Shown piece by piece: positions 26,011-42,160 of a DNA stretch of 64,000 nucleotides. A program made the position numbers and the translations under genes. Origin of the DNA: a virus; IMG/VR virus record IMGVR_UViG_3300045988_103986, positions 1 to 64,000 of that record, one strand, 5' to 3'. The notes under the pieces were generated by a model that made no database searches, was not told where the DNA came from, and saw only the letters and a list, made by a program, of their open reading frames with translations. The first letter of the stretch is position 1; every line of letters starts with the position of its first letter.

Positions 26011-26040
26011 GGGACAAATAGTAAATCTGCGTAGATATAA
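26011..26040 (+). promoter_or_regulatory. cassette promoter-like box pair P1
   Basis: GGGACAAAT agtaaatctgc GTAGATATAA. Confidence 0.55.
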
Positions 26041-26077
26041 AGATGAAAGCAAAACTCACTGAATGGAGGGTCATACA

Positions 26078-26569
26078 ATGACGAACAAAGAGATTGGAAA
26101 CGCAATCCGCGCGACGCTGAAGGCGGAAGGATATGCGCCGCGAGATTTTTCCGTGCGCGTCCGTGACTGCGGCTACAGCACGAGCGCGGACGTGACGATC
26201 AAGAATCCGGAAATCCGCCGCGCAAATGTGGAGCGGCTTCTATCCAAATTTGAGCGCGTCGACCGCGACTATGCGACCGGCGAGATTTTGGCGGGCGGTA
26301 ACTGCTACCTTTTTGTGGACTACGAGCGAGGAATCTTCGACGCGCCAGCGCAGGAGATGGCCACGACGGCGGTGGGGATTCTCCGTGAGGATAGCGAGTG
26401 CATCCGCATCTTCGATGGCCTGTATCTCTGCAATCGCAACGGACGCACGGAGCTTCGCCAGCAGAACGACGCAGGGAACTGCGCGTGGCTGATTGGCGGT
26501 TTCTCGCTTCTGAACGAGCTGTGCGTTGCCATGTACAAATACGCAAAATTCGGGACTATCGCGCCGTAA
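26078..26569 (+). CDS. hypothetical protein, 163 aa
   Basis: Start MTNKEIGNAIRATLKAEGY behind GGAGGG; family seen on mobile elements (from memory), function unknown. Confidence 0.6.
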   Translation: MTNKEIGNAIRATLKAEGYAPRDFSVRVRDCGYSTSADVTIKNPEIRRANVERLLSKFERVDRDYATGEILAGGNCYLFVDYERGIFDAPAQEMATTAVGILREDSECIRIFDGLYLCNRNGRTELRQQNDAGNCAWLIGGFSLLNELCVAMYKYAKFGTIAP

Positions 26570-26591
26570 TGGCGCAGTAGCCCCGAACGGA

Positions 26592-26735
26592 ACAAACCAA
26601 GGAAACCAAGAAAACCAGAAAAACCAAGGGAAATATTGAACCGGACAAAACCAAGAAAACTGATGGAATCAGGAATCGGGAAAAACCAAAAAAAACTAGC
26701 TGAATACCGAAACCAACTAAACCGAGAAAACTAGT
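26592..26735 (+). repeat. cluster of ~8 AAACCAAGAAAAC-like words in non-coding DNA
   Basis: aaaccaaggaaaccaagaaaaccagaaaaaccaaggg...aaaaccaagaaaactg...aaaaaccaaaaaaaactag...aaaccgagaaaactag. Confidence 0.7.
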
Positions 26736-26769
26736 GGCTTCCGGAGTTGAAAATTTTTCTTAAAGTTCT

Positions 26770-26799
26770 GGGACAAATCAGAAAACGTTGTAGAACTAA
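26770..26799 (+). promoter_or_regulatory. cassette box pair P2
   Basis: GGGACAAAT cagaaaacgtt GTAGAACTAA. Confidence 0.5.
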
Positions 26800-26837
26800 A
26801 GGTAGAACATCAAAACTACTTTTTGGAGGTACGGAAA

Positions 26838-27161
26838 ATGAGCAAGCTTTACTTTATCGAGACAAACGGCGGCTGGTTGACAGTTGCAACAGACGAAGAC
26901 GGCCGCGCCTGCTATATGCGCGAGGATGGCCGTGAAGATGGATACCCAGACGCTGATCCGCGCTGGGCCGAATCAGACGCGCAGGAGCGCGAGACGATCG
27001 CCGAGAAGTGGCTGCGCTCCATTGCAGACTGGAACAGCTTTGATGACCTGTATGCGAACTGCGACGTACAGAGCGGTTTCTGCGGCGTTTACACCGTCGA
27101 GGACTTCAACGCAGATCTGGAAAACGGCAGCGACGAAATCATTGCAAGCATTGATTTCTGA
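26838..27161 (+). CDS. hypothetical acidic protein, 107 aa
   Basis: Start MSKLYFIETNGG behind GGAGG. Confidence 0.6.
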   Translation: MSKLYFIETNGGWLTVATDEDGRACYMREDGREDGYPDADPRWAESDAQERETIAEKWLRSIADWNSFDDLYANCDVQSGFCGVYTVEDFNADLENGSDEIIASIDF

Positions 27162-27175
27162 CATGCTGAAAAATT

Positions 27176-27206
27176 GGGGGCGAGAAATCGTCCCCATTAT
27201 TTTTTT
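27176..27206 (+). terminator. rho-independent terminator
   Basis: GGGGCGA gaaa TCGTCCCC followed by ATTATTTTTTT. Confidence 0.6.
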
Positions 27207-27216
27207 GCTATCGTTC

Positions 27217-27248
27217 GGGACAAGCGCTGATTTTCGGTAGAAATAAAG
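27217..27248 (+). promoter_or_regulatory. cassette box pair P3
   Basis: GGGACAAGC gctgattttcg GTAGAAATAAAG. Confidence 0.5.
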
Positions 27249-27281
27249 ATAGAAAGACAAAACAAATGGAGGTACTTACTC

Positions 27282-27623
27282 ATGACAAACGCTGCAATTA
27301 TTCTGGACGAATCCATCCGGTTAATGAACGACGGCATTCTCAAAGGCACGGGCCGTTTCCTCGACGTGGTGAACGAAGACGGCAGCACATCGAAGCTTGA
27401 GATTCCCGAAGAGATCCATACCTTCAACGCCTGGAAGCAGCGCGGTTTTATCGTCCGCAAGGGTGAGCACGCCGTCGCGTCCTTCCCCATTTGGAAGTAC
27501 ATTAACGGCAAGCGCAAAGAAGCCGAAGAACCGCTGGATGGCGACGACGAGGTGCGCGGCTACTGCCGACTGAAGCTTTCCCATTTCTTCACGGCGGAGC
27601 AGGTGCAGCCGCTGACCGCATGA
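27282..27623 (+). CDS. hypothetical protein, possibly ArdC-N-like ssDNA-binding fold
   Basis: HTFNAWKQRGFIVRKGEHAVASFPIWKY resembles the W-x3-G-x2-V-K-K-GEKG motif of ArdC N-domains (from memory; weak). Confidence 0.55.
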   Translation: MTNAAIILDESIRLMNDGILKGTGRFLDVVNEDGSTSKLEIPEEIHTFNAWKQRGFIVRKGEHAVASFPIWKYINGKRKEAEEPLDGDDEVRGYCRLKLSHFFTAEQVQPLTA

Positions 27624-27732
27624 GTCGATCTGCTGAAACGCTGGGCGAAATTCGCCCGTCGTTTTTCTGTTTTTCGCCTCTGCTGAATCAATTTGTTGCC
27701 TACCATAAAAGCAGAAAATTTCTTGATTTTCT

Positions 27733-27765
27733 GGGACAAATCCGTTTTTCCGGTAGAAGTATAAG
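27733..27765 (+). promoter_or_regulatory. cassette box pair P4
   Basis: GGGACAAAT ccgtttttccg GTAGAAGTATAAGTGTAAAG. Confidence 0.55.
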
Positions 27766-27798
27766 TGTAAAGAAAAAACAAAAAACGGAGGCGCAAAA

Positions 27799-27912
27799 AT
27801 GAAACACTATTACAAATCCAGCGGCCTGCAGATGTTCTTCACCGGCGCGGCCATCGCAGTCATGTTCATAATTATCCTGTGCGCGGACTCGCTCATCGAG
27901 TTCATTCTGTGA
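27799..27912 (+). CDS. small membrane peptide, 37 aa (below ORF-track cutoff)
   Basis: My own translation: MKHYYKSSGLQMFFTGAAIAVMFIIILCADSLIEFIL; GGAGG RBS. Confidence 0.45.
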   Translation: MKHYYKSSGLQMFFTGAAIAVMFIIILCADSLIEFIL

Positions 27913-27924
27913 GGGGGCGGCATC

Positions 27925-28278
27925 ATGCAATTCATTGCGAACTACGACGCAAAAAACGTCTTCGGCTGTTTTGAGAACGTCGAGCAGCACGCCCTTGCAT
28001 TTTCCGAAGAAACCGCCGCGAAACTGTTTGATTCAGGCATGAAGATCTTCCGGGGCGACGCGAGCACATTGAACGCCCTAAAGATCTGTTTCACTGGTAG
28101 CGTGACGGTCTGTATATACCGCGAAATCGCGGATATTGACAACGGCGTTTTTCGCGTCCGCGTCTGGGACAGGCCGAACAGCTACGACGAAAAAACCATG
28201 AGCAGGCAAGCGCTCAAAAAAATGGTGCTTTTCAAAATTTCGCAGGAATTTGCAGAGCCTGCCGAGCAGTCGGCGTAA
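27925..28278 (+). CDS. hypothetical protein, 117 aa
   Basis: GAGGGGG RBS. Confidence 0.6.
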   Translation: MQFIANYDAKNVFGCFENVEQHALAFSEETAAKLFDSGMKIFRGDASTLNALKICFTGSVTVCIYREIADIDNGVFRVRVWDRPNSYDEKTMSRQALKKMVLFKISQEFAEPAEQSA

Positions 28279-28297
28279 CCAGAACAGGAGGAAAACC

Positions 28298-28450
28298 ATG
28301 TTATACAGCGAGATTATCCGTAGCATCGACGAAATTTTAAGTTATTTCAAATTCCACAACAAGAACCTGACAAATACGCAAATTGAAAAACTGTATGAAC
28401 TGCAAGATCTGATTCACGAACTTCGCATCACGCAGGAGAGAAATAAATGA
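28298..28450 (+). CDS. hypothetical protein, 50 aa
   Basis: Start MLYSEIIRS behind AGGAGGA. Confidence 0.5.
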   Translation: MLYSEIIRSIDEILSYFKFHNKNLTNTQIEKLYELQDLIHELRITQERNK

Positions 28451-28578
28451 AACGAAACCAGTACCGCAAAACCTTTGAATTTTTCAGCACAGAACAGCAA
28501 GCCGCCGTATTTGTGGCGGGGCCGTGGCGGTCCGCCGACGGCAGAGAAAACAAGTTTATCGTCTGGTATTACATCTGA
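28447..28578 (+). CDS. hypothetical protein, 43 aa (below ORF-track cutoff)
   Basis: ATGA overlap; MKRNQYRKTFEFFSTEQQAAVFVAGPWRSADGRENKFIVWYYI. Confidence 0.4.
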   Translation: MKRNQYRKTFEFFSTEQQAAVFVAGPWRSADGRENKFIVWYYI

Positions 28579-28591
28579 GGGGGGGCAAATC

Positions 28592-28858
28592 ATGAAGGTA
28601 TTCGTAGTGGTTCATCATTGGGACACGCCCGACAATGAGGGCGTGGAAGTCCTGGGCGTTTCCTCAACGGTAGAGAAAGCCCGTGCGCAGATCGTGGCAG
28701 GTGCAGGCGAAACCAGAGCAGAATACGACGAAGATTTCTGGGACGAGGATATGTCGTGGGACGAACCCATGAGCATTCACCTCGGCCGGTGTGGACGCGA
28801 CTATCTGGAACAGTCCACGGTCTACAGTTGGGAAATCTCCGAGCAGGAAGTTGAATGA
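28592..28858 (+). CDS. hypothetical acidic protein, 88 aa
   Basis: Start MKVFVVVHHWD behind GAGGGGGGG. Confidence 0.6.
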   Translation: MKVFVVVHHWDTPDNEGVEVLGVSSTVEKARAQIVAGAGETRAEYDEDFWDEDMSWDEPMSIHLGRCGRDYLEQSTVYSWEISEQEVE

Positions 28859-28875
28859 AAAAGTACCGGCGCAGC

Positions 28876-28910
28876 GGGACAAATGCCACTGCGCCGGTAG
28901 ATATATAGGT
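28876..28910 (+). promoter_or_regulatory. cassette box pair P5 (embedded in an 11-bp-stem hairpin, 28864-28899)
   Basis: TACCGGCGCAG cGGGACAAATgcca CTGCGCCGGTA GATATATAGGTGTAAAG. Confidence 0.55.
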
Positions 28911-28946
28911 GTAAAGAAAACCAAGAAAAACAGGAGGTTTCATACA

Positions 28947-29609
28947 ATGACGCAACTCGAAATTTTCCAGGAAATCGCCGACGCTGTGAACGCAGCAGCC
29001 GGTTCCAAGAATCCCAAAATGACCATCGTAACCGAAAGTGAGTTCGGCGGTGTGTACTTTTTGCACATCAACGCACATTCCGCAGATATAAAGCCTTATG
29101 CGCAGTACAAAGACGCGCTGACGATCTACTTCAAAAAGCGCGGTGGCCGCTCAGTCTATGGAATGCGCTTCTATGGTACAAAGCCCGTAGCAATCTTCTC
29201 CGGGTGGAAGGAGACAACATGGGAGCAGCCCAGAAGCTTCCTTTGCTTTGACAAGAATATGTTCTACGGTCTGGTTGATGGCTTCCCGAAGGAACAGAAG
29301 ATTTCCGAAGAATCCGAGCGCGTTCACCTGTCCGAGATTCAGCAGAAGGGTAAGGTCTACAAGGTTGTTAGCATGAACCCGGATGACCCGCAGCCACGCA
29401 TGATTGTCGAAACGTATGAAACTGCCGAACACTTAAAAAAAGCATTTGAGACTTCCGGTGAGTTCCGCAGCGTATCGTGCCGGGCAGAATTGCAGGGCGC
29501 GCCGAAGCTCAAGAACTTCTGCGGGCCGATGTACGATGGGGAGGACGATCAGGGCCGCGCTGTTATCCGGTACGAGTCGCAGGAAGTCTACGATATTTTG
29601 AGCCTCTAG
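28947..29609 (+). CDS. hypothetical protein, 220 aa
   Basis: Start MTQLEIFQE behind CAGGAGG. Confidence 0.65.
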   Translation: MTQLEIFQEIADAVNAAAGSKNPKMTIVTESEFGGVYFLHINAHSADIKPYAQYKDALTIYFKKRGGRSVYGMRFYGTKPVAIFSGWKETTWEQPRSFLCFDKNMFYGLVDGFPKEQKISEESERVHLSEIQQKGKVYKVVSMNPDDPQPRMIVETYETAEHLKKAFETSGEFRSVSCRAELQGAPKLKNFCGPMYDGEDDQGRAVIRYESQEVYDILSL

Positions 29610-29625
29610 GTTTTTTACGTAGGCT

Positions 29626-29660
29626 GGGACAAAACCGCTTTCCCCTGTAGATACATAAGT
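29626..29660 (+). promoter_or_regulatory. cassette box pair P6
   Basis: GGGACAAAA ccgctttcccct GTAGATACATAAGTGTAAG. Confidence 0.55.
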
Positions 29661-29712
29661 GTAAGCGAACGGCATTCCCGCCCCGGAGGTTACGAGGGCA
29701 AAGGAGAATATC

Positions 29713-29913
29713 ATGCACATCATCGGATTTACCATCAAGCAAGCCGGGCAGGCAATCGGCAATACCCCTATCCGAGAGCAGGCAACAGGGGCAGCCAAAG
29801 CCCGCGCCCAGCAGACGCGATTCCCCGTTTCCGTCATTGCCCACTGTGACACTGGCAAGGAGATAGAGGTCATCTTCCATCCTGATGGCACCAGCGAACG
29901 GATCAGAAAATAA
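29713..29913 (+). CDS. hypothetical protein, 66 aa
   Basis: AAGGAG RBS. Confidence 0.55.
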   Translation: MHIIGFTIKQAGQAIGNTPIREQATGAAKARAQQTRFPVSVIAHCDTGKEIEVIFHPDGTSERIRK

Positions 29914-29959
29914 TCGACGCCGCCTGACCTACCGGGCATACGGGGAGAAAGGTTTTACC

Positions 29960-30313
29960 ATGAAAAAAATTATCGCTTTGTTTCTTGCCGTTATTACTGC
30001 CGCTGCTGTCCTCTGTGCAGCACATAAGCCGATCACCACATACGCGCACACTGCGCTTATCACGGCACTGGACTATGATACCGATACCGCAACAGTCACC
30101 GGCTACTCTGGTCTAACGTGGACGTTCTCCGGCTGCGAGGACTACTGCGTCGACGATCTGGTTTCCCTCACCATGTCAGACAACGGAACCAAGGAAACTG
30201 TACTGGACGATGAAATCCTGTCCGCCACCTATGCAGGGTATCTCCCCTATTGGTACATTTATGGCGGCGACGGATATGCTGCGTTCAATGGAATTGAGAA
30301 GGCGGGAAAGTGA
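29960..30313 (+). CDS. secreted protein, 117 aa
   Basis: Start MKKIIALFLAVITAAAVLCAA (signal peptide). Confidence 0.6.
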   Translation: MKKIIALFLAVITAAAVLCAAHKPITTYAHTALITALDYDTDTATVTGYSGLTWTFSGCEDYCVDDLVSLTMSDNGTKETVLDDEILSATYAGYLPYWYIYGGDGYAAFNGIEKAGK

Positions 30314-30389
30314 TGGAGATATAGATATTCCGGACGGCATAGAGAAAATCGCAGGGAATCAAACGCTTCCCTGTTTTTTCTTTTTCTGC

Positions 30390-30425
30390 GGGACATTTTC
30401 TTTTCTCACAGTAGATATATAAGTG
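30390..30425 (+). promoter_or_regulatory. cassette box pair P7
   Basis: GGGACATTT tcttttctcaca GTAGATATATAAGTGTAAAT. Confidence 0.5.
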
Positions 30426-30471
30426 TAAATAAAAAGCCGCCCAGAGGTCACGAGGGCAGAAAGGACATAAC

Positions 30472-30744
30472 ATGGAAAGTCGCATCAGGATTAAGGCAAC
30501 AATGCCGGAGATGTACACTTTTTTCAAGGAAGAAACAGGTGTGCGATTTATGGAAATCCACGATATGCGGTATTCGTCAGATGAAATCGACCACATGCAG
30601 GCAGCCGAACGCAGCAAAACCGTATTCGAATGGCGTGTAATTCTTCGGCATCCCGGAGAAAAAACGGCACTCCGTGGTACATTTACGATTCCCGGCATAA
30701 AGAAGAAGCTGGGAAAGTTGAAAGCGGAGTGCAAAGTTTTTTGA
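30472..30744 (+). CDS. hypothetical protein, 90 aa
   Basis: AAAGGA RBS. Confidence 0.6.
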   Translation: MESRIRIKATMPEMYTFFKEETGVRFMEIHDMRYSSDEIDHMQAAERSKTVFEWRVILRHPGEKTALRGTFTIPGIKKKLGKLKAECKVF

Positions 30745-30803
30745 TACTGCATCCGATGAACGATTGCGGAGAACTACTCGCTCTTTTCTTTTTTATATTT
30801 CTC

Positions 30804-30836
30804 GGGACAAATTGAGATTTTCAGTAGATATAAAAC
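30804..30836 (+). promoter_or_regulatory. cassette box pair P8
   Basis: GGGACAAAT tgagattttca GTAGATATAAAACCAAG. Confidence 0.55.
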
Positions 30837-30875
30837 CAAGAGGACAAAACACTACAGAACATGGAGGAAATCAAA

Positions 30876-32075
30876 ATGTATTACATTATCAACCGTGAAA
30901 CAGACAAACTCGAACTTTACTTTTCGAAGGAAGAGTATCAGGCCATGCCGGACGAAACGAAGTCCACGATCAGAAGCAACTTCCTTTTCTCCCGTCGTGG
31001 CGGCTGCTGGGTAAGCCGTGCAAAGCGTCCACACCTTTCCTATGTTGAGCGCATAGCAAAAGACCTTGGTGCGGAGTATCAGGGCAAGACCGGCGAAGAA
31101 CTGACCTTCGAAGAAAAGATGGAACGGCAGGCAGACCGCGCAGCGGCCAGAGCGGAGCGCATGGACGCACGATCTGACGCAGCTGCGCAGCGCGGCGAAG
31201 CCCTGCAGAAGCCCGTCGAGAATATGCGCGGCGATATCGCGTTCTTCACGCAGCCGAACATCAACACGTCCGCAGGCCGCGCGTTCACCCGGCAGCGCGA
31301 GCGCATGTTTGCGGCGTTCGACCGTGGATTCGAAGAGTTCAAAAAATCAGAGTATTACGCCCAGCGGGCGGAAATTGCCCGCAGAACAGCAAATCTGGAA
31401 AATTCCAAGGATAAGGCATTCTGCGACCGTCGAGTGAAAGACGCGCAGAAGAACATCAAGGCCATCCAGAAAAATCTCGACCACTACCATGCCATGCTGG
31501 AATGTGACGGAATGGGAGAACAGCAGAAGCGCTTCGATGGTACGCCTATCGAGCGTGCAGAGATCGAGCGCTGGATTGAAGACACAGAAGAACGTCTGGA
31601 ATCCGAGATTTCCCGCCTCTGCTATTATCAGTCCTGCATCGACGATCTGGGCGGCGTGCAGTTCAGCAAAGAGAACATCAAGCCGGGCTACGTCGTGAAA
31701 ATCAAACATTACAACGACTGCACCGTCCTGCGAACCGGCCCGAAAAACATTATCTATCGCACCCCGAACGGATTCAATCTGACTGCCGCCTACGCCGAGA
31801 TTCTGGAAATCGTCAAAGCAGAGGAAACGATAAAGCCGACGCACCCGTTCAAGGTCGGCGAGGAATTCACCGTCAGCACCCTTCAGGCCGGTGCATGGGT
31901 TCCGGACACGTGGGAGGTCATCAAAGCCACGGTTGCAACCGTCACGTTGAAAAACCAGGCTACCGGTAAGACCGTCAACAAAAAGCCGCGAATCGGTTGG
32001 ACGAGCAGCGGAGAGAAATGGAAGATTTCAGTCGGTGAATACTCCACAGACATCTGCAAGGACCTTGAAAAGTAA
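30876..32075 (+). CDS. hypothetical protein, 399 aa, DUF3560-like central region
   Basis: ERQADRAAARAERMDARSDAAAQRGEAL...EYYAQRAEIARRTA resembles the DUF3560 helical core (from memory, weak); start MYYIINRE behind GGAGGA. Confidence 0.65.
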   Translation: MYYIINRETDKLELYFSKEEYQAMPDETKSTIRSNFLFSRRGGCWVSRAKRPHLSYVERIAKDLGAEYQGKTGEELTFEEKMERQADRAAARAERMDARSDAAAQRGEALQKPVENMRGDIAFFTQPNINTSAGRAFTRQRERMFAAFDRGFEEFKKSEYYAQRAEIARRTANLENSKDKAFCDRRVKDAQKNIKAIQKNLDHYHAMLECDGMGEQQKRFDGTPIERAEIERWIEDTEERLESEISRLCYYQSCIDDLGGVQFSKENIKPGYVVKIKHYNDCTVLRTGPKNIIYRTPNGFNLTAAYAEILEIVKAEETIKPTHPFKVGEEFTVSTLQAGAWVPDTWEVIKATVATVTLKNQATGKTVNKKPRIGWTSSGEKWKISVGEYSTDICKDLEK

Positions 32076-32092
32076 AAATATCTACCGGAGGC

Positions 32093-32126
32093 GGGACAAA
32101 GTTCCCGCTTCCGGTAGATACAAAAG
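32093..32126 (+). promoter_or_regulatory. cassette box pair P9 (sequestered in a 16-bp interrupted hairpin, 32080-32119)
   Basis: ATCTACCGGA g GCGGGA caaagt TCCCGC t TCCGGTAGAT. Confidence 0.55.
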
Positions 32127-32164
32127 CAGAACAGGAAAACCAAGAAAACTGGGAGGTACATAAA

Positions 32165-32755: not shown

Positions 32756-32821
32756 ATTTCCAAGTCATGTAGAAATTTCAGAATCCACATGTTAGAATGG
32801 GATGAGATTGGGGGGTTGCCG

Positions 32822-33052: not shown

Positions 33053-33060
33053 ATCATCTT

Positions 33061-33289: not shown

Positions 33290-33322
33290 GGGACAAATGC
33301 GGATCTTGCGTAGAAATACAAG
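33290..33322 (+). promoter_or_regulatory. cassette box pair P10 (orphan: faces the 3' end of an opposite-strand gene)
   Basis: GGGACAAAT gcggatcttgc GTAGAAATACAAG. The next + strand start is >1.6 kb away. Confidence 0.5.
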
Positions 33323-33333
33323 CAGGCAAAACA

Positions 33334-34857: not shown

Positions 34858-34894
34858 TTCACATCAGCCTCATCAAATTATAATAAAAGTATAT

Positions 34895-34923
34895 TGACAG
34901 CATCATTTTATTATGCTATTATT
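34895..34923 (+). promoter_or_regulatory. canonical sigma-A promoter
   Basis: TTGACA - 17 nt - TATTAT, 22 nt upstream of the RHH start. Confidence 0.7.
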
Positions 34924-35315: not shown

Positions 35316-35361
35316 TATGACCTAATTCATTTGGAGGCCGAACTATACTGAAATTAGATGG
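35316..35361 (+). promoter_or_regulatory. module-start element, copy 3
   Basis: TATGACCTAATTCATTTGGAGGCCGAACTATACTGAAATTAGATGG. Confidence 0.55.
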
Positions 35362-35395
35362 GTATTGCCACCAAACACGATTAAAGGAGAAAAAT

Positions 35396-36223
35396 ATGAG
35401 CTATTTAGAAACGATCAACAACACCAATATCGCAATCAAAGAGTATCAGGGGCAGCGCGTCGTCACGTTCAAGGATGTTGACACAGTGCATGGAAGACCG
35501 GATGGAACCGCGCGGAAGCGTTTCAATGACAACCGTGAACACTTCATCGAAGGCGAAGATTTCTTCAAAGTTAAGTGTTCTGAGGTGCGTCCGTTTTTCG
35601 GACAGACCCCGCCGAACGGTTTTAACCCCGATGCAGACATTGTTCTCGTGACTGAATCTGGCTACCTCATGCTTTCGAAGTCCTTTACAGACGATAAAGC
35701 TTGGCAGGTACAGCGGCAGCTTGTGAAGGGTTACTTCCGGGCAAAAGAAGCCGTGCAGCTCTCCCCTGCCGAACAGCTGCTTGCGCAGGCGCAGCTCATG
35801 GTCGAGCAGGAGCGTCGGATCAAGGCTCTGGAAGCCAGTAACGCCGAAAACGCACGGGCAATGGAGACGGTCAAAGACGCCATCGACATCATGGTAGCGC
35901 CGCCCGTAACGGCTGGCAACTGGCAGAGCCAGATGAACCGGAACGTCCGCGCATTCTGTATGCAGACGGGCCTCGACTTCCACGAAACGTTCAGACAGCT
36001 TTATGCGGAACTGGAAGTATCGGCCGGTGTCAAGCTTGGTGTCCGCGTTAAGTTCGCACGCCAGCGTCTGCAGGTCAACGGCGCAACACAGACCGAGATC
36101 GCGGCCGTCTCAAAACTCAGCATTGTCGCGCAGGACAAGAAACTGCGAGAGATTTTCAACAGCCTGTACAACCGTATGGTTGCCAGATACACAATCAATA
36201 CGGACAGAACACAGAATCGTTAA
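35396..36223 (+). CDS. ORF6N-domain antirepressor-like protein
   Basis: IKEYQGQRVVTFKDVDTVHGRPDGTARKRFNDNREHFIEGEDFFKV. Confidence 0.75.
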   Translation: MSYLETINNTNIAIKEYQGQRVVTFKDVDTVHGRPDGTARKRFNDNREHFIEGEDFFKVKCSEVRPFFGQTPPNGFNPDADIVLVTESGYLMLSKSFTDDKAWQVQRQLVKGYFRAKEAVQLSPAEQLLAQAQLMVEQERRIKALEASNAENARAMETVKDAIDIMVAPPVTAGNWQSQMNRNVRAFCMQTGLDFHETFRQLYAELEVSAGVKLGVRVKFARQRLQVNGATQTEIAAVSKLSIVAQDKKLREIFNSLYNRMVARYTINTDRTQNR

Positions 36224-36236
36224 AGGAGGTAAAAAC

Positions 36237-36800
36237 ATGGCAGAAAGACGCATGTTTGCAAAATGCGTTGTTCAATCCGCACAGTTTCTGAAAATGCCGG
36301 TCGCGGCCCGGCTTTTGTATTACGACCTTGGCATGGCCGCTGATGACGATGGCGTCGTCGAAGCATTCACCGTACTTCGTACAACGGGCGCGTCCAAAGA
36401 CGATTTGATGACCCTCGCAAGCAAGAAATTCGTTCAGGTCATAAACGATGATCTAGTTACGGTCATCCTTGACTGGAAACGAAACAACCAAATCCGTAAA
36501 GATCGATACCGCCCTAGCATTTACCGAGACCTGCTTTCTTCGCTTGGAGCGGTCGTAGAGGAGTCAGTTGTAACAGAGGAAAACGAAGAACGAGAGAAAA
36601 CAGAAAAATGCCCATTCTGCGGTGGTGACGCATATTTGCATTTTGCGCAAAGCCGTTATCTCTTCGTCAAATGCGACGTCTGTGGCGCAACCGGAAAATC
36701 GTATTATCAGAACCTGACAACAGAAGAAATGGACACCGGCGAATGGGTGAAGACAACAGCCGCTGTCAGTGCAGTTCGCGCTTGGAATCGGAGGAACTGA
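36237..36800 (+). CDS. second replisome-organizer N-domain protein fused to a Lar-like zinc ribbon
   Basis: MAERRMFAKCVVQSAQFLKMPVAARLLYYDLGMAADDDGVV...DWKRNNQIRKDRY, then CPFCGGDAYL...CDVCG. Confidence 0.75.
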   Translation: MAERRMFAKCVVQSAQFLKMPVAARLLYYDLGMAADDDGVVEAFTVLRTTGASKDDLMTLASKKFVQVINDDLVTVILDWKRNNQIRKDRYRPSIYRDLLSSLGAVVEESVVTEENEEREKTEKCPFCGGDAYLHFAQSRYLFVKCDVCGATGKSYYQNLTTEEMDTGEWVKTTAAVSAVRAWNRRN

Positions 36801-36801
36801 A

Positions 36802-37746
36802 ATGGAAGAAGAGAAGAAAGCATTTTTGCTTTACCATGAGGGTATCGACGATATCCTCACCCTTCCAAGGGAAAGCGCCGGTGCAGTCATTCAGGCGATT
36901 TACGTCTACGTGAACACCGGCGCACTGCCGAAAGACTTTACCCCGCTTGAAGAAATGGTTTTCCGGCATATGCGTCAAGGGATAGACCGCAATGCGGAGA
37001 AGTGGGAGCGCGAACGAAAGAAGCGGCAGGACAGAGCCAGAAACGCGGCCAACGCCAAGTGGAAGAAGTTCGCAGAGGAACACGGGACAACCACTGACGA
37101 ACTGCAGCGCCTTATGGACACAGCTGCTAAAGCATGCAATAGCATGCAACCGCAGAATGAACCATGCTATAGCATACCAGAGCATAACAATGAATGCGCA
37201 AGCACGCCAAAGCAGGATATTTTATGCCAAAGCATGCACGAGCAGATTAAGCATAACACAGAAAAAAATAATTCTGCTAATAAAGTAAATGTAAGTGTAA
37301 ATGTACCTGTAAGTGTAAGTGGTAATGGTAGTGTACCTGTTAGTGGTAGTGTACCTGTAAGTGTAAGTGCCAATGATCCTGTACCTGTTAAAGAAGAAGT
37401 GGGAGTGGAAAAGGGAAAGGAAGAGGGTGCAGGGGGAAACCATTGGGAAGAACCGCGTCCTTCGCGTGCTGCGCCGATGTTGCGTATGAACGCCGTGATC
37501 GTACCTGACGAACCGCCGAAGTCGAAGGACGGGTTGGTTTTTGGAAGCGAAGATTATATCCGGATATTTAACGAAGAGTCCGACCGGTTTGCTCTGCCGG
37601 GAGAGAAGCCGCGCTATTTTGCCGACTTGACCGGTCCAATGCTGGTCAACCTCGAACGCTGCGAGCAATCCAGGCTGCAGAGTGGCCGTCCGAAGGAACG
37701 GTCTTCCCTTGTGAGAGATGAACTGATCGCACATGGTTTTTGGTGA
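36802..37746 (+). CDS. DUF6291-like protein with a low-complexity V/S/P/N repeat
   Basis: FLLYHEGIDDILTLPRESAGAVIQAIYVYV...RNAEKWERERKKRQDRARNAANAKW. A GTAAGTGTA/GTACCTGT DNA repeat at 37290-37390 encodes VNVSVNVPVSVSGNGSVPVSGSVPVSVS. Confidence 0.6.
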   Translation: MEEEKKAFLLYHEGIDDILTLPRESAGAVIQAIYVYVNTGALPKDFTPLEEMVFRHMRQGIDRNAEKWERERKKRQDRARNAANAKWKKFAEEHGTTTDELQRLMDTAAKACNSMQPQNEPCYSIPEHNNECASTPKQDILCQSMHEQIKHNTEKNNSANKVNVSVNVPVSVSGNGSVPVSGSVPVSVSANDPVPVKEEVGVEKGKEEGAGGNHWEEPRPSRAAPMLRMNAVIVPDEPPKSKDGLVFGSEDYIRIFNEESDRFALPGEKPRYFADLTGPMLVNLERCEQSRLQSGRPKERSSLVRDELIAHGFW

Positions 37747-37763
37747 GAAGGAGGTTTTGCGCC

Positions 37764-38135
37764 ATGAACAACAATGAAATTCAGAAGGAGTTGTCCCGTC
37801 TGACGAAGCGCTATGCAGATGTCGGGGCCACAGAAGAAAAAGTCCTTGAACTGTTCGAGGCAATGAAAATCCGTTTCGCTGGTCGAGGCGACGAAGCTGC
37901 CGTGCTGGGTGTCCGTATGTCGCTGGGCGAGTATTTCCACCGGGAGGAAATTTTCTCCCTCGATGATGTCTGCTGCATGGTCGCACGACCGAAAGAGGAA
38001 GTCATTGCACACATAATCGCGATGGGGCCAGAGGTCATGCGCAGGCACATTGTCACCGTAGAGCCGTCGCCATATTTGGTCGAATACCTCAAGCGAAAGC
38101 ACGAACGCGAAAACCGGCAGGACGGCCAGCAATGA
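37764..38135 (+). CDS. hypothetical protein, 123 aa
   Basis: Start MNNNEIQKE behind AAGGAGG. Confidence 0.6.
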   Translation: MNNNEIQKELSRLTKRYADVGATEEKVLELFEAMKIRFAGRGDEAAVLGVRMSLGEYFHREEIFSLDDVCCMVARPKEEVIAHIIAMGPEVMRRHIVTVEPSPYLVEYLKRKHERENRQDGQQ

Positions 38136-38160
38136 TGTTTCCAAAAAGTGCAGAACCCGT

Positions 38161-38193
38161 GGGACAAATTTGGATTTTGTGTAGAAACACAAA
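38161..38193 (+). promoter_or_regulatory. cassette box pair P11 (no gene directly downstream; followed by hairpin GCCAC..GTGGC)
   Basis: GGGACAAAT ttggattttgt GTAGAAACACAAATAGG. Confidence 0.45.
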
Positions 38194-38251
38194 TAGGGGC
38201 CACACCGCCAAGTGGCTTTGAAAAAACTCTCCCAGACCTTAATCTTCCCTA

Positions 38252-38280
38252 TTGACTTTTGGGGCTACATGAATTATATT
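38252..38280 (+). promoter_or_regulatory. canonical sigma-A promoter overlapping an inverted repeat (operator-like)
   Basis: TTGACT - 17 nt - TATATT; CATGAAT tatattgt ATTCATG spans the -10. Confidence 0.65.
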
Positions 38281-38313
38281 GTATTCATGGGCTACAAGAA
38301 GTGAGGTGAAAAC

Positions 38314-38481
38314 ATGAGTCCACGCACTGGACGCCCGAAATCAGAGAATCCCAAATCAAACCCGCTTCACGTCCGTTTGGACGATAAGACGCTGAAAGTT
38401 CTTGACGATTACTGCGAAAGAACCGGCAAGAAGCGCACAGAAGCCATTCGGGACGGGATTCTCTTATTGGAAGGTAAATAA
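38314..38481 (+). CDS. ribbon-helix-helix (CopG-like) protein, 55 aa (below ORF-track cutoff)
   Basis: My own translation: MSPRTGRPKSENPKSNPLHVRLDDKTLKVLDDYCERTGKKRTEAIRDGILLLEGK; GAGGTG RBS. Confidence 0.65.
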   Translation: MSPRTGRPKSENPKSNPLHVRLDDKTLKVLDDYCERTGKKRTEAIRDGILLLEGK

Positions 38482-38656
38482 GAATCCCCCACGCTGTTCG
38501 ATCTTGGCGGACTGACAGCATGAGGGATGGTGTCCACATCTTGCGGAAGATGGGGAGCGTAAATATATTACTACGCTCCCCGGAAAAGGTCAACCTTTTT
38601 GCGGGGATTTTTCTGTACATATGGAGAAATCCAGGAAAAGTAAAAGGAGAAATTTT

Positions 38657-39382
38657 ATGAATGAATTGGCGAAAATTATTCCCATCAACACCGAAAACCC
38701 CGAACGAATCACGGTCTTTGCCCGTGACCTGCACGCATTCTTGGAAGTCGATACGCGCTTCAATGACTGGTTTCCCAGAATGTGCGAATTTGGTTTTGAA
38801 GAGGGAAAAGACTTTTACTCATTTTTGAGTAAAACCCAAAACGGCGGTAGACCGTCCAGAGACGCAGAACTCACTATTGATATGGCAAAAGAAATCTGCA
38901 TGTTGCAGCGCAACGAAAAGGGCAAAATCGCGCGCCGCTATTTCGTCGAACTTGAAAAGGCGTGGAACAGTCCGGAGAAGGTCATGGCGCGGGCTTTGCA
39001 GATTGCAAACAATCAGGTAAAGCAGTTACAGGCGAAAATCGAAGCCGACGCGCCCGCCGTGTTCTTCGCCGAAGCCGTAACTGGCGCGGACACAAACATC
39101 CTCATCCGTGATATGGCGAAACTGCTTGCGCAAAACGGCGCAGACATTGGTGGGAACCGTCTGTTCGAGGTTTTGCGCCGGGATGGATATCTCATCAAGT
39201 CGGGCAGCGATTACAACATGCCCACGCAAAAGGCCATGGAACTCGGCCTGTTCTTCGTAAAGGAAACGCCGCGCATTGCCAAGGAAGGAGCCGTCATTGA
39301 TCGGACGACCAAGGTAACACCGAAAGGCCAGAAATATTTTATCAACAGATACGCGCCGAAGAAAGCGCTATTGGAAAATTGA
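38657..39382 (+). CDS. AntA/KilAC-type phage antirepressor
   Basis: VFARDLHAFLEVDTRFNDWFPRMCEFGFEEGKDF...TIDMAKEICMLQRNEKGKIARRYF (AntA), then IRDMAKLLAQNGADIGGNRLFEVLR...MELGLF (KilAC). Confidence 0.85.
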   Translation: MNELAKIIPINTENPERITVFARDLHAFLEVDTRFNDWFPRMCEFGFEEGKDFYSFLSKTQNGGRPSRDAELTIDMAKEICMLQRNEKGKIARRYFVELEKAWNSPEKVMARALQIANNQVKQLQAKIEADAPAVFFAEAVTGADTNILIRDMAKLLAQNGADIGGNRLFEVLRRDGYLIKSGSDYNMPTQKAMELGLFFVKETPRIAKEGAVIDRTTKVTPKGQKYFINRYAPKKALLEN

Positions 39383-39404
39383 AAAACGAAAAGGAGAAGC
39401 AAGA

Positions 39405-39611
39405 ATGAATATCAAAGAAATCTATGAGCACACACAGAATGTCGACGGCTGGATTCTCGGCATTGATGGCAGCGCAAGCCCGGTGGATCTGAGCAATCCG
39501 GCAATCATGGCCGGTGTCGGGAAATTCCATGTGAAGACGATCTATCCGGAATTCGACGACGGCAAAATCATCGTCGAGCTGGACGTTGCCACCACGGTTG
39601 AGACCGATTAA
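39405..39611 (+). CDS. hypothetical protein, 68 aa
   Basis: AAGGAG RBS. Confidence 0.55.
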   Translation: MNIKEIYEHTQNVDGWILGIDGSASPVDLSNPAIMAGVGKFHVKTIYPEFDDGKIIVELDVATTVETD

Positions 39612-39728
39612 AAAATATTTTTTCGGCTTCCTCGCGGCACTTCGGCTGCGACAACTCCAAATATTCTTCGACAAGTTCCGAATTTTCCTTCTCTTTTGGA
39701 GATATCTGAACTTCTTCGACAGTTTTTA

Positions 39729-39773
39729 TATGACCTAAATCATTTGGAGGCATGAGTATGCTGAAAATAGAGG
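39729..39773 (+). promoter_or_regulatory. module-start element, copy 4
   Basis: TATGACCTAAATCATTTGGAGGCATGAGTATGCTGAAAATAGAGG followed by a CAA-rich leader. Confidence 0.55.
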
Positions 39774-39831
39774 CAGGTAACAAACGAAGCCAAGCAAACA
39801 AGCAAACAAACAACAACAGGAGGAAAAAGCA

Positions 39832-40191
39832 ATGACAAAAACCGAATGCGCAGTCTATGATCTGCTCAAGGAAATCGGCGTACCGACTCACAAAAAAGGC
39901 TACGCCTACATTCAGGAGGCAGTCACCAACAAGTACGATGGCAAGTACGAAGACTTCTCCATCACCGGGCCGAAAGGCATCTATTGCGACGTCGCAAAGA
40001 AGTTCAGGACTGAGGCCAGCCGGGTGGAACGTGACATTAGATCGGCTATCGATTACGCGTTCAACTACGGAGATCCCAAAGTGCTGTACGGCATCTTCGG
40101 AAACTCCATCGCTCCCGGAAAGGGAAAGCCAACAAACGCCATGTTTATCTTCCAGTGCGCAAAGGAACTTGAGCGGCGAAAGTCGGCTTGA
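39832..40191 (+). CDS. stand-alone Spo0A C-terminal (DNA-binding) domain homologue
   Basis: LLKEIGVPTHKKGYAYIQEAV / IYCDVAKKFRTEASRVERDIRSAIDYAF / KPTNAMFIFQCAKEL align with B. subtilis Spo0A [21 protein letters not shown] / [28 protein letters not shown] / KPTNSEFIAMVADKL (from memory). Confidence 0.85.
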   Translation: MTKTECAVYDLLKEIGVPTHKKGYAYIQEAVTNKYDGKYEDFSITGPKGIYCDVAKKFRTEASRVERDIRSAIDYAFNYGDPKVLYGIFGNSIAPGKGKPTNAMFIFQCAKELERRKSA

Positions 40192-40212
40192 CAGAAAATC
40201 CCCGCAGGCAGC

Positions 40213-40245
40213 GGGACAAATGCAAAAACTCGGTAGAACAAAAAG
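40213..40245 (+). promoter_or_regulatory. cassette box pair P12
   Basis: GGGACAAAT gcaaaaactcg GTAGAACAAAAAGTGCAAAG. Confidence 0.5.
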
Positions 40246-40291
40246 TGCAAAGCAAATGCAAAATCAAAATCAGAAAAGGAGATCAGCCACA

Positions 40292-40528
40292 ATGAAGAAA
40301 GAAAAATGCGCCGCTCTGGTCTATGTCCCGGAGCTCACCCCGGAAGATGTTTTCAGCCACCTTGTGTGTCACCACGCAGACGTTGTACGCGCCAGAAACG
40401 CGCAGCGGGCCTACAAGCGCCAGGTTGAACGCAAACACCGCTGTATTGCCTCTATTGTGATCGTCGTGTCCTCGCTCGCTACGGCCGCCACGCTGCTCAT
40501 CACGAGTGGTGCCATTCACTTCCTGTGA
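40292..40528 (+). CDS. C-terminally membrane-anchored protein, 78 aa
   Basis: MKKEKCAALVYVPE...IASIVIVVSSLATAATLLITSGAIHFL; AAGGAG RBS. Confidence 0.5.
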   Translation: MKKEKCAALVYVPELTPEDVFSHLVCHHADVVRARNAQRAYKRQVERKHRCIASIVIVVSSLATAATLLITSGAIHFL

Positions 40529-40541
40529 TTGGAGGCCGCGC

Positions 40542-40709
40542 GTGTACAAGTTGTATGACAGTTATCCGGACTTCCCTGCCCTCGTCGGCACGTTTGAAAG
40601 CGTCGACGAGGCGCGGGAAGCCGCACGGAAGCTAGACGAAGCAACGGGCGGGAAATTCTTCCCGAGACTCGTCAAGGATGGAAAGGTCATTCAAGATTGG
40701 GGGTATTGA
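40542..40709 (+). CDS. hypothetical protein, 55 aa (GTG start)
   Basis: GGAGG 6 nt upstream of the GTG; start uncertain. Confidence 0.4.
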   Translation: MYKLYDSYPDFPALVGTFESVDEAREAARKLDEATGGKFFPRLVKDGKVIQDWGY

Positions 40710-40712
40710 GGA

Positions 40713-40958
40713 ATGACGTATGCGACACTGGAAATCATCGCCTCTCTTCTTGAGAAGGAGAAGAACATCCGGGAAAAGGAATGCGAGCTCCTGCGCGAGA
40801 AGCTGAATTCTGCGCGCGGCAAAGCGGAAGACGCGCCAGAAGATGACGAACTCTCTCATGTAGCAGAGTTCGCCCGAGCATTGTACGAAAAGGCCAGAAA
40901 GAGGCTTCTCAACCATGAACGCGCTTATGAGGACTTCCTTGAGCATGATTTTCGATAG
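40713..40958 (+). CDS. hypothetical helical protein, 81 aa
   Basis: ORF abutting the previous stop. Confidence 0.5.
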   Translation: MTYATLEIIASLLEKEKNIREKECELLREKLNSARGKAEDAPEDDELSHVAEFARALYEKARKRLLNHERAYEDFLEHDFR

Positions 40959-40974
40959 GAAATTTATTTGGAAG

Positions 40975-41008
40975 TGGGACAAATCCATTTTTTCGGTAGA
41001 AACATAGG
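40975..41008 (+). promoter_or_regulatory. cassette box pair P13
   Basis: GGGACAAAT ccattttttcg GTAGAAACATAGGTGTAAG. Confidence 0.55.
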
Positions 41009-41043
41009 TGTAAGACAAAACACCATACAGGAGGCCAAAAACA

Positions 41044-41223
41044 ATGAAGAAAGTTGAGGAATTATGGAACGAGTTCGGCGATGTGCCGATGAACCCGGAA
41101 ACAGAGTGCATTGAGGAAACATGGAACGGGTTCCCAGCCGGAACAAATCGGGAGGAAATTTGGCACTGGTTCGAGGAAACATTCGACGTTCGCGTCGCTG
41201 ATCTGATGTACGGAGGTATCTGA
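41044..41223 (+). CDS. hypothetical acidic protein, 59 aa (below ORF-track cutoff)
   Basis: My own translation: MKKVEELWNEFGDVPMNPETECIEETWNGFPAGTNREEIWHWFEETFDVRVADLMYGGI; CAGGAGG RBS. Confidence 0.5.
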   Translation: MKKVEELWNEFGDVPMNPETECIEETWNGFPAGTNREEIWHWFEETFDVRVADLMYGGI

Positions 41224-41224
41224 A

Positions 41225-41815
41225 ATGGGACAGCGTTCACAGATCTATGTCCGCGCGTCCGGGCAGCTCATCGTTGCAAACTACTATCAATGTAACTATG
41301 CCGAGCGAATGATTTCGCGTGCTAGATACGGCATTGAGTGCATCGATTCGGTCAAGGACTACAGCCACTGGATTTTTCTCCGCGACGTGAACGTCGAACA
41401 TTTGCGCCGTATTCTGGACGTAAACTTCGACCTCAAGGACCACCAGACTTCGAGCAAGATCATCGAAGAATGGAAGGACGTTTTTCCAGACAAGCCTTTC
41501 AACGATGTCGTGTTCAACTGGCAAGACAATAACGACGGTCAGCTGTTCATCGACTTCACGAAAGACGGGAAGATCTCTTATGCGTTCCGGAAGACGGAAG
41601 ACATGACGTGCGAAAGCCCGATGTCTGCTGCCGAATACATGGAATGGGATCGTCGGAACTGGCTGGATTGCGAGTCCATGACGAAGGCTGAAAAAGCCAC
41701 CTGCCGCCGTAACATTGCAGCTATCGATAAGATGGCAAGACTTATGACCGCAGAGGAATTGAAAGAGTTCGTCCATCATGACTACGGGTACAAATCCGTT
41801 CAGGAGGCAGACTGA
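41225..41815 (+). CDS. hypothetical protein, 196 aa
   Basis: GGAGG RBS; coupled. Confidence 0.65.
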   Translation: MGQRSQIYVRASGQLIVANYYQCNYAERMISRARYGIECIDSVKDYSHWIFLRDVNVEHLRRILDVNFDLKDHQTSSKIIEEWKDVFPDKPFNDVVFNWQDNNDGQLFIDFTKDGKISYAFRKTEDMTCESPMSAAEYMEWDRRNWLDCESMTKAEKATCRRNIAAIDKMARLMTAEELKEFVHHDYGYKSVQEAD

Positions 41816-41816
41816 C

Positions 41817-42089
41817 ATGACCTTTAGAGATTTCTGTACAGGCTTCCGCGATTACTGGCCGAACTTCGTTGCAAAGCACTGGAACTTCTCACAGTGCAGA
41901 AACGGATACAGTGCCGGGTACACGCCGAAATATCCAGAAAAGACAGCAGCGGATTTCGACGTATTTTATAACACTTGCGACGGCTCATGGACACTCTACG
42001 CTGGAACAGCGTGCGTCCCGATTATAAGAAGGTTTGAATCCTTCGACAAACTTGCGAAGCAGGCTTGTGAACCCGCAAAATGCCCGTAA
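41817..42089 (+). CDS. hypothetical protein, 90 aa
   Basis: Start MTFRDFCTG 1 nt after the previous stop. Confidence 0.5.
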   Translation: MTFRDFCTGFRDYWPNFVAKHWNFSQCRNGYSAGYTPKYPEKTAADFDVFYNTCDGSWTLYAGTACVPIIRRFESFDKLAKQACEPAKCP

Positions 42090-42126
42090 GTTCCCGCAAG
42101 ATACCCGCAAAAAACGTAGATTTTCC

Positions 42127-42160
42127 GGGACAAATCCGGAATCCAGGTAGAACAGTAAAT
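42127..42160 (+). promoter_or_regulatory. cassette box pair P14
   Basis: TTCCGG GACAAA TCCGGAA tccag GTAGAACAGTAAATGTAAG (box 1 forms a hairpin loop). Confidence 0.5.

Follow-up and report, generated by a model that had tools for sequence, protein, structure and literature searches.

What reads a short, two-part DNA motif that heads one small gene cassette after another in a phage genome? The question is raised by IMG/VR virus record IMGVR_UViG_3300045988_103986, of which we analyzed positions 1 to 64,000; this whole stretch of 64,000 nucleotides (nt), hereafter the window, is a portion of a ~100-kb human-gut phage. A sequence-only reading of the window had noted fifteen copies of a promoter-like box pair, which we write here as GGGACAAAT (box 1) and (C/G)GTAGA (box 2). 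Our analysis of these sequences and their relatives indicates that the box pairs are very probably promoters of some kind. The reading that we favor, at a probability of roughly 65%, is that they form a phage-specific promoter class that would be read by an extracytoplasmic function (ECF)-type sigma factor apparently encoded by the phage itself, at 22714-23436, and that would drive a series of moron-like accessory cassettes.

The motif occurs far more often than expected by chance and only in one orientation. The regular expression GGGACA-N14/15-GTAGA matched exactly the fifteen positions listed by the earlier reading (the copy given as 40975 actually starting at 40976), with 15 matches on the + strand and 0 on the - strand, compared to ~0.06 chance matches that we calculate for both strands of 64 kb at the two spacings. 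The element CGGGACAAAT alone, allowing at most one mismatch, was found 21 times against 4.8 expected. The long box 2 consensus that had been proposed proved over-specified, as its 18-mer GGTAGAWATAWRTGTAAR matches just three sites even at three mismatches; the fixed part of box 2 consists of GTAGA, a near-invariant A at +10, T at +13 and AA at +16/17. A relaxed scan yielded a 16th copy with one mismatch, starting at 25294 in the divergent control region. The degenerate copy suggested at ~47967 was not counted, because its box 1 deviates at two positions and the ~260 nt that follow contain no start codon. Upon extending the scan to 28 related IMG/VR loci, we found 2-9 motif copies in each, always on one strand. 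Across 129 distinct instances of the motif, the spacer measures 14 nt in 70 and 15 nt in 59, and its sequence is free and of low information. Common to these instances are an A/T-rich tract that precedes box 1 by 11-19 nt, at the position of an UP element, and further conserved positions 3' of GTAGA.

Both the geometry of the motif (two boxes, a near-constant spacer and free spacer sequence) and its placement relative to genes are those of a sigma-dependent bipartite promoter. Of the 16 copies in the window, 14 are intergenic, co-oriented with the next gene and located 43-66 nt ahead of an ATG with a GGAGG-type ribosome-binding site (RBS), and 109 of the 129 family instances have an RBS and a start codon 35-70 nt past GTAGA, with a sharp mode at 45-49 nt. 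The earlier statement that each copy lies shortly upstream of an RBS holds for 13 of the original 15 (45-66 nt from the G of GTAGA to the ATG), and it fails for the copies at 33290 and 38161. We ascribe the lack of an adjacent gene start at these two orphans to insertions, namely of a T5orf172/DUF4041 gene and of a ribbon-helix-helix (RHH)-antirepressor module; the related locus L108 lacks exactly 38213-39387, which is this RHH-antirepressor module with its own sigma-A-type promoter. Between 25.9 and 33.3 kb, all + strand intergenic gaps of at least 55 nt contain a motif copy. Strong intrinsic terminators are located just upstream of several copies (at 25967-25996, 27175-27196 and 30351-30374), and a new transcription start would therefore be needed there.

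The motif fits neither the housekeeping sigma-A class of promoters nor the sigma-H and sigma-F classes. It had been argued that its hexamers and spacing do not fit sigma-A, and we confirmed this: 0 of the 15 copies were picked up in a sigma-70-type scan of 25000-44900. Compared to TTGACA-N17(+/-1)-TATAAT with A at -11 and T at -7, the motif departs in that TAGAWA ends in T, at the -7 position, in just 27 of the 129 instances and that the spacer to TAGA is 15 or 16 nt. Canonical sigma-A promoters, with scores of 12/12 (25130-25102, - strand), 11/12 (34894, + strand) and 10/12 (38252, + strand), are present elsewhere in the window. Because they occur in the same region, the host consensus appears to be ordinary and the motif to be something else. 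The resemblance to sigma-H promoters that had been pointed out did not survive closer comparison. In the sigma-H consensus AGGAWWT-GAAT, the two elements are ~14 nt apart (as in the B. subtilis spoVG promoter), while GGGACAA and GAWA of the motif are 16 or 17 nt apart and GAAT is found in a minority of copies. Sigma-F, whose consensus is GYATA-N14/15-GGnnAnAHTR (quoted in 10.1101/2023.12.01.569620), misfits at both boxes, as box 1 reads GGGACA and box 2 has an invariant G where an A is needed (GGTAGA). Since the sigma-H and sigma-F consensus sequences both fail, a host sporulation sigma factor, which had been put forward as a possible reader, is unlikely. The Spo0A box TGTCGAA was likewise rejected, having, by eye, only GACA in common with the motif.

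The other reader put forward earlier, the product of the open reading frame (ORF) at 22714-23436, emerged as the best explanation. Judged from its family profile and its predicted structure, this ORF is a putative divergent ECF-type sigma factor with both a sigma2 and a sigma4 domain, and not merely the 'r4-like' protein for which it had been taken. An exhaustive homologue search retrieved 269 matches at 90% clustering and, at 50% clustering, 162 representatives, of which many span the full length with 30-44% identity; the family is almost entirely unnamed and occurs in human-gut phages of several cohorts. Using 63 homologues, we built a family profile and an alignment for AlphaFold2 (AF2). 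The profile matches the PDB ECF sigma factors CnrH, SigH/AlgU and sigma-E across regions 2 and 4 at E ~1e-6, with the alignment covering residues ~38-185 of CnrH, AlgU and sigma-E, i.e., both domains, and 33 of the 63 family members match Pfam Sigma70_ECF at E <= 0.01. While a single-sequence AF2 run gave a predicted local distance difference test score (pLDDT) of 45, the model built from the alignment reached 88.9. It consists of helices up to residue 140, comprising an N-terminal helical extension and the sigma2 domain, a disordered linker (141-178), and a four-helix helix-turn-helix (HTH) domain that would be sigma4 (179-239). The best Foldseek matches to this model were all ECF sigma factors, in the PDB M. 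tuberculosis SigH and SigL and E. coli sigma-E, and in BFVD RpoE-like phage sigma factors. Profile, model and Foldseek matches agree in pointing to the group 4 architecture, sigma2-linker-sigma4 with no sigma3 or sigma1.1. The N-terminal extension amounts to ~90 residues before the profile-aligned part, or to ~55 if helix 56-77 is the first sigma2 helix. N-terminal extensions are uncommon in ECF sigma factors, and phage ECFs were explicitly left outside the ECF classification (10.1101/2019.12.11.873521). Among the window proteins scanned, there was no second sigma-like gene and no anti-sigma partner was recognized.

Among 185,579 species-representative genomes, we found no close relative of the sigma factor, and a search of viral contigs with the distant family members P0124 and P0125 returned nothing. 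A back-translated ADYRATFxAAL pattern retrieved one true homologue, in a metagenome-assembled genome (MAG) of Eubacteriales (locus L145), along with two chance matches. A tblastn search against plasmids was empty, leaving a conjugative-plasmid connection of the family unsupported. No description of the motif or of the sigma family was found in the searchable literature.

The strongest link between the motif and this protein came from a comparison of the window with the loci of seven distant members of the sigma family. In five of the seven, the sigma gene is adjoined by a promoter-like box pair of its own, and four of these are arrays on the strand opposite to the sigma gene. Locus L140 (sigma P0125, 40% identity) has GGGACAAA-N12-GT(A/T)(A/T)C in three copies within 2.9 kb, divergent from the sigma gene; L138 (sigma P0124, 42%) has GGGACAAAT-N12-GTCAC in a single copy, which lies on the sigma's own strand among sigma-A-driven units. 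Divergent arrays are likewise present in L142 (sigma P0128, 35%; an A/T tract followed by CGGTTCTAA, four copies), in L145 of the Eubacteriales MAG (GGTTTCC-N16-GGCATCATA, seven copies), and in L149 (sigma P0131, 36%; GGTTGCC-N15-18-GGCGTATA, 12 copies, where box 2 contains CGTA). In L149, L145 and L142, an extended -10 promoter of the sigma-A type heads the sigma gene, as in the window. Box 1 changes together with the second (recognition) helix of the sigma4 HTH: the helix SKS(T/A)x(Q/D)RR, found in the window sigma, P0074, P0124 and P0125, always pairs with a GGGACAAA box 1, and the helix S(Q/H)xA(V/L)(S/N)KR, found in P0128, P0131 and the L145 sigma, always pairs with a GGTTnnn box 1. Qualitatively, two helix classes correspond to two box 1 classes over six lineages, as would be expected of promoters and the sigma factor that reads them.

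We propose the following mechanism. Box 1 would act as the -35 element and box 2 as the -10 element. Upon infection or induction, host polymerase carrying sigma-A would fire the perfect promoter at 25130-25102, which heads the leftward operon that includes the sigma gene, and transcription would probably continue into the replication genes. The newly made sigma factor would then, together with host core polymerase, switch on the 16 rightward promoters, each of which would transcribe a unit of one to five genes; with several units insulated by terminators, the whole would amount to an array of moron-like cassettes. Transcription is predicted to start ~10-13 nt past the G of GTAGA, at the purine pair +11/+12, which would give 5' untranslated regions of ~33-55 nt.

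A number of observations weigh against this assignment. ECF promoters have an AAC-type -35 box and a CGT-type -10 box ~16-17 nt apart. The motif, written GGGAC-N15/16-GTAGA, has GAC in the -35 box in place of the AAC typical of ECF promoters, and its gap of 15-16 nt from GGGAC to GT is 1-2 nt under the textbook value. For the single protein, the Pfam scores stay below the curated cutoffs (17.1 vs 25.7 bits for Sigma70_r4_2, 16.8 vs 21.1 bits for Sigma70_ECF), and the scan of the ORF alone gave no match to Sigma70_r2; its HTH matches were sub-threshold as well. The Foldseek matches have weak E-values, at best 7e-3, and a TM of ~0.25, which we attribute to the flexible link between the two domains. 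No copy of the motif heads the sigma gene, so that the autoregulation usual for ECF sigma factors is absent. The co-variation of box and helix comprises six lineages, with helices classified visually and no statistical test, and repeat and k-mer searches brought up no obvious array in the remaining two loci, L148 (28% identity) and L150 (MT835520; 45% identity over the C-terminal 190 aa, with another N-terminus). It would, moreover, be an odd design for cassettes to await the prior synthesis of a sigma factor if their role is anti-defence. Initiation, timing, start position and the pairing of sigma and motif are all inferences from sequence.

These points leave room for other readings. The sites may be promoters read through a host sigma factor, either a host ECF or sigma-A assisted by a phage activator bound to GGGACAAAT, in the manner modeled by T4 MotA/AsiA; the ORF at 22714-23436 would then be the activator or have another target. 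We hold this to be rather unlikely. It can draw on the GACA that GGGACA and TTGACA have in common, on the few copies with a TAGAAT passable as a -10 element, on the UP-like A/T tract, and on the fact that the ORF is assigned as a sigma factor by remote homology only. Yet TAGAWA has its final T in only those 27 of 129 instances, with 15 or 16 nt of spacer ahead of TAGA, and the ORF has, besides the HTH, a sigma2-like domain that would be superfluous for an activator. Furthermore, box 1 shifts with the phage sigma4 helix, box pairs adjoin the sigma gene in five of seven other lineages, and no close relative of the phage sigma was found in the 185,579 species-representative genomes.

Two further readings dispense with promoter activity as the main role of the motif. 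Stoperators of cluster A mycobacteriophages are single short asymmetric repressor sites present in many copies and oriented with transcription, and the many same-orientation copies in short intergenic regions of the window are similar to them. With RHH and HTH regulators encoded in the region and an integrase that makes lysogeny plausible, the copies might be oriented operators or stoperators through which a phage repressor (e.g., an RHH or HTH protein) silences the accessory region or blocks transcription across it. Beyond the orientation bias, the likeness breaks down: the two boxes are dissimilar and make up no palindrome or direct repeat, the spacer is variable in sequence with two lengths, 14 and 15 nt, in a sigma-like geometry, and the distance to start codons is tightly constrained and promoter-like. 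Several copies directly follow terminators, at points with no incoming transcription to be blocked, and a separate repeat in the early control region, AACCGTAT (four exact copies and one variant), is more operator-like, all of which makes this reading improbable. A role in nucleic-acid structure or recombination, in which the motif is a signal for RNA processing or termination, a hairpin, or mainly a joint at which cassettes are exchanged, and initiates transcription only secondarily or not at all, seems to us similarly improbable. Perfect 11-17-bp palindromes around box 1, preceded by an A-run and resembling an opposite-strand terminator, are seen in ~23% of instances, and mosaic breakpoints relative to related phages lie at or next to the motif (25999/26595, 29603/30818, 26812/27200 and 38212/39388). 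However, significant structure is lacking in most instances (median z -0.6), and the region downstream of them is not structured either (mean z -0.59). Any model would lead one to expect breakpoints between genes, and a role as a joint only would leave the UP-like tract, the two-box geometry and the sigma4 co-variation unexplained.

Under our preferred reading of a phage-specific promoter class, the array would control a set of cassettes whose products were only partly as first described. Of 24 cassette proteins, 10 have an isoelectric point <5.5 and only 3 have a strongly hydrophobic segment, so that 'mostly acidic, secreted or membrane' overstates the case. Among the family labels, DUF3560 was borne out (36.3 vs 27.2 bits) and ArdC-N was not (sub-threshold at 20.0 vs 22.6 bits). 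Pfam thresholds were passed only by DUF3560 and DUF7336, DUF6927 being sub-threshold as well, and the remaining cassette proteins had no family match in our scans. The Lar and antirepressor genes of the region reside in sigma-A-driven operons and are not motif-headed. Because most cassette proteins lack a family match, an anti-defence or host-takeover role is a reasonable guess rather than a finding, and we treat it as putative. Close relatives differ by entire units, with homology breakpoints at or next to the motif (the first three pairs given above); moron-like cassette turnover would fit this pattern, with the promoter possibly serving as a joint.

Table 1. Positions of the motif copies and of the control elements around them in the window
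Feature	Position	Strand	Remark
Variant 16th motif copy (GGTACAAA-N13-GGTAGAATAAAAGG)	25294..25332	+	heads 25358-25879; ATG at +43 from G of GTAGA
Motif copy 1	26011..26048	+	heads 26078-26569; directly 3' of terminator 25967-25996
Motif copy 2	26770..26807	+	heads 26838-27161
Motif copy 3	27217..27254	+	heads ArdC-N-like gene 27282-27623; after terminator 27175-27196
Motif copy 4	27733..27770	+	heads five-gene unit 27799-28858
Motif copy 5	28876..28914	+	heads 28947-29609; box 1 in loop of 14-bp palindrome, terminator-like on - strand
Motif copy 6	29626..29664	+	heads 29713-30313; unit missing from relative L135
Motif copy 7 (GGGACATTT)	30390..30428	+	heads 30472-30744; after terminator 30351-30374
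Motif copy 8	30804..30841	+	heads DUF3560 gene 30876-32075
Motif copy 9	32093..32131	+	heads 32165-33052; inside 17-bp palindrome
Motif copy 10 ('orphan')	33290..33327	+	faces inserted reverse-strand T5orf172/DUF4041 gene 33334-34857
Motif copy 11	38161..38198	+	split from ancestral gene 39405-39611 by inserted sigma-A-driven RHH-antirepressor module
Motif copy 12	40213..40250	+	heads 40292-40958
Motif copy 13	40976..41013	+	heads 41044-42089
Motif copy 14	42127..42164	+	heads 42205-42909
Motif copy 15	52819..52856	+	heads 52897-53241; same place kept in relative L020
Putative divergent ECF-type sigma factor, 240 aa	22714..23436	-	proposed reader of the motif
Perfect sigma-A-type promoter TTGACA-17-TATAAT	25102..25130	-	heads leftward operon holding the sigma gene
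Repeat cluster, four exact AACCGTAT and one TAGCCGTAT	25118..25273	+	divergent control region; candidate operator array
Sigma-A-type promoter TTGACA-17-TGnTATTAT	34894..34922	+	heads RHH / ORF6N / Lar / DUF6291 operon interspersed in the array
Sigma-A-type promoter TTGACT-17-TATATT	38252..38280	+	heads RHH-antirepressor module
Intrinsic terminator, 13-bp stem and T-run	25967..25996	+	insulates first cassette
Similar intrinsic terminators	27175-27196, 27642-27658, 30351-30374		

Several local features accompany the motif copies and the control region. A conserved RNA or DNA hairpin was considered as a general feature of the motif and discarded, as only ~23% of copies have one. Where palindromes are present (at 28864-28899 and 32082-32121, and also in L003, L020 and L077), box 1 occupies the loop or upper stem and the 3' arm ends in the CCGGTA of box 2; these palindromes may insulate against antisense transcription. 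The 8-mer AACCGTAT occurs 12 times in the window compared to 1.06 expected; the repeats of the cluster are all in direct orientation, with one inside the spacer of the perfect sigma-A promoter, and the cluster looks like a candidate operator array for an early-switch regulator. In L142, L148, L149 and L145, CTGAACAG / GAAC is strongly over-represented, often between RBS and start codon (...GGAGGnnnGAAC-ATG), and looks like a lineage-specific translation-initiation context. Adjacent to the sigma gene, ~1.1 kb separate its stop codon (22714) from the gene at 21158-21556, the sole long ORF there being of low complexity and rich in P, S and R; relative L135 has a called 225-aa gene in the matching region. 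GC content is 0.6-0.7 over 22-26 kb and ~0.5 elsewhere in the window, and GC skew flips sharply around 21.8 kb (from -0.3 to +0.3).

The remainder of the window is arranged in two - strand arms around the + strand middle. The left arm encodes a dUTPase, a G39P-like loader, a replisome organiser, SSB, a helicase-methylase fusion, a PAPS-reductase-like protein, an AAA ATPase and YopX, and the right arm an endolysin, TnpB, and tail-fibre-like proteins with DUF6273 and Listeria-Bacteroides repeats. The middle (25.3-54.5 kb) contains small genes, an integrase, three tRNAs, TnpB, and HU, MazF-like and NifS-like genes, the last three labeled from their translations and not via a family search. The tRNAs were the only Rfam hits in the window at gathering thresholds. 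The helicase-methylase fusion at 7191-9704 (- strand; 837 aa, helicase C-terminal domain plus N6/N4 DNA methylase), located in the replication arm, and the PAPS-reductase-like gene at 15061-15927 may hint at DNA modification functions. At 39832-40191, there is a stand-alone gene for the Spo0A C-terminal (DNA-binding) domain without a receiver domain (Pfam 91.5 bits), which is not motif-headed. It matches the class of truncated spo0A genes previously reported in gut phages of spore-formers (10.1101/2023.01.19.524802). The gene at 33334-34857 (- strand; DUF4041 plus T5orf172/MUG113, GIY-YIG-like), an antisense insertion right after the motif copy at 33290, and two IS605-type TnpB genes (48234-49346, + strand, assigned by N-terminal sequence only, and 57511-58614, - strand) are selfish-element passengers. 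Just upstream of the integrase gene, ~1.6 kb (42900-44500) are without a credible ORF on either strand. The + strand of this region is A/G-rich, with degenerate GCA(A/C)(A/G)G-type repeats at a period of ~10-11 nt and no match in Rfam; candidate roles are those of an origin, of an array for packaging or binding, and of a non-coding RNA. The relatives of the window are IMG/VR contigs of 60-111 kb and human-gut assemblies, Hadza samples among them. No cultured relative was found: when 42 kb of the window were compared by megablast with 50,697 phage records, the only match was one of 78 nt.

Phage sigma factors with private promoters have been textbook knowledge since SPO1 and T4, and ECF-like sigma factors are widely annotated in phage genomes. 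Hence, no concept is overturned, and the window provides a fresh example of a known phage strategy. What is new is a predicted, hitherto unannotated sigma family with an N-terminal extension, its putative promoter consensus and lineage-specific sigma/promoter pairs, as well as an accessory array with one promoter per cassette under that consensus in abundant gut phages. The analysis proposes a concrete function for a widespread unannotated protein family. At least three sigma/promoter pairs (GGGACAAAT/GTAGA, GGTTGCC/GGCGTATA and GGTTTCC/GGCATCATA) could become orthogonal expression parts for Clostridia-class bacteria, and the motif is a cheap computational handle for co-regulated small ORFan cassettes that are natural candidates in screens for anti-defence or host-takeover functions. 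More speculatively, gut Firmicute phages might use orthogonal, lineage-private sigma/promoter channels to gate hypervariable cassettes, possibly for anti-defence or host manipulation, with the ~45-bp promoter doubling as a swap joint and the N-terminal extension as a regulatory or sensing domain in place of an anti-sigma; we offer this wider scheme as a tentative idea that is doubtful as a whole.

The putative sigma factor shares its sigma2-linker-sigma4 layout with bacterial ECFs such as B. subtilis SigW, E. coli sigma-E and M. tuberculosis SigH/SigL, and the motif, with a G-rich -35 box of the ...AC kind and a (C/G)GT... -10 box, in part recalls their promoters. Orthogonality of promoters has been noted for ECF groups (10.1101/2019.12.11.873521), and every phage lineage here likewise has its own, apparently orthogonal, box pair. 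It differs from bacterial ECFs in having no recognized anti-sigma, no autoregulatory promoter and an N-terminal extension, in falling below Pfam thresholds, and in its proposed sites, with GAC for AAC and a slightly shorter spacer.

SPO1, a Bacillus and thus Firmicute phage, uses host sigma-A for its early genes and then its own sigma factors with private -35/-10 consensus sequences for a later gene class (PMC13401047; 10.1101/2021.11.12.468384). Similar to SPO1 gp28 and gp33/34, the window has a sigma gene behind a sigma-A promoter and, by inference, a private consensus for a later class; in contrast to SPO1, the sigma factor would belong to another family, the two-domain ECF type with an N-terminal extension, and the set that it regulates would be accessory cassettes instead of replication or structural genes. 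Nor does the motif resemble the SPO1 middle (AGGAGA-N17/18-TTTNTTT) or late (CGTTAGA-N18-GATATT) promoters. The array also recalls the SPO1 host-takeover module, in that both combine strong RBSs with dense small genes, mostly of unassigned function, and nearly every gene or short operon has a promoter of its own. That module runs on strong sigma-A early promoters, whereas those of the window are of a non-sigma-A type and presumably depend on the phage sigma, and among the scanned window proteins we saw no homology to SPO1 host-takeover proteins; the cluster architecture is thus present without the promoter type.

In archaeal viruses, a shared regulatory motif marks anti-defence genes (PMC11065993). 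Although these belong to another domain of life with other transcription machinery, and the cassettes of the window are only putatively anti-defence, a common upstream sequence defines small, fast-evolving accessory genes in both cases and offers a handle for discovery. The morons of temperate phages provide another parallel: the cassettes are self-contained units, several with an upstream terminator and a promoter, and their presence or absence varies among close relatives, with breaks at unit edges. While classical morons are scattered and carry assorted host-type promoters, the array in the window is unified by what appears to be one private promoter class.

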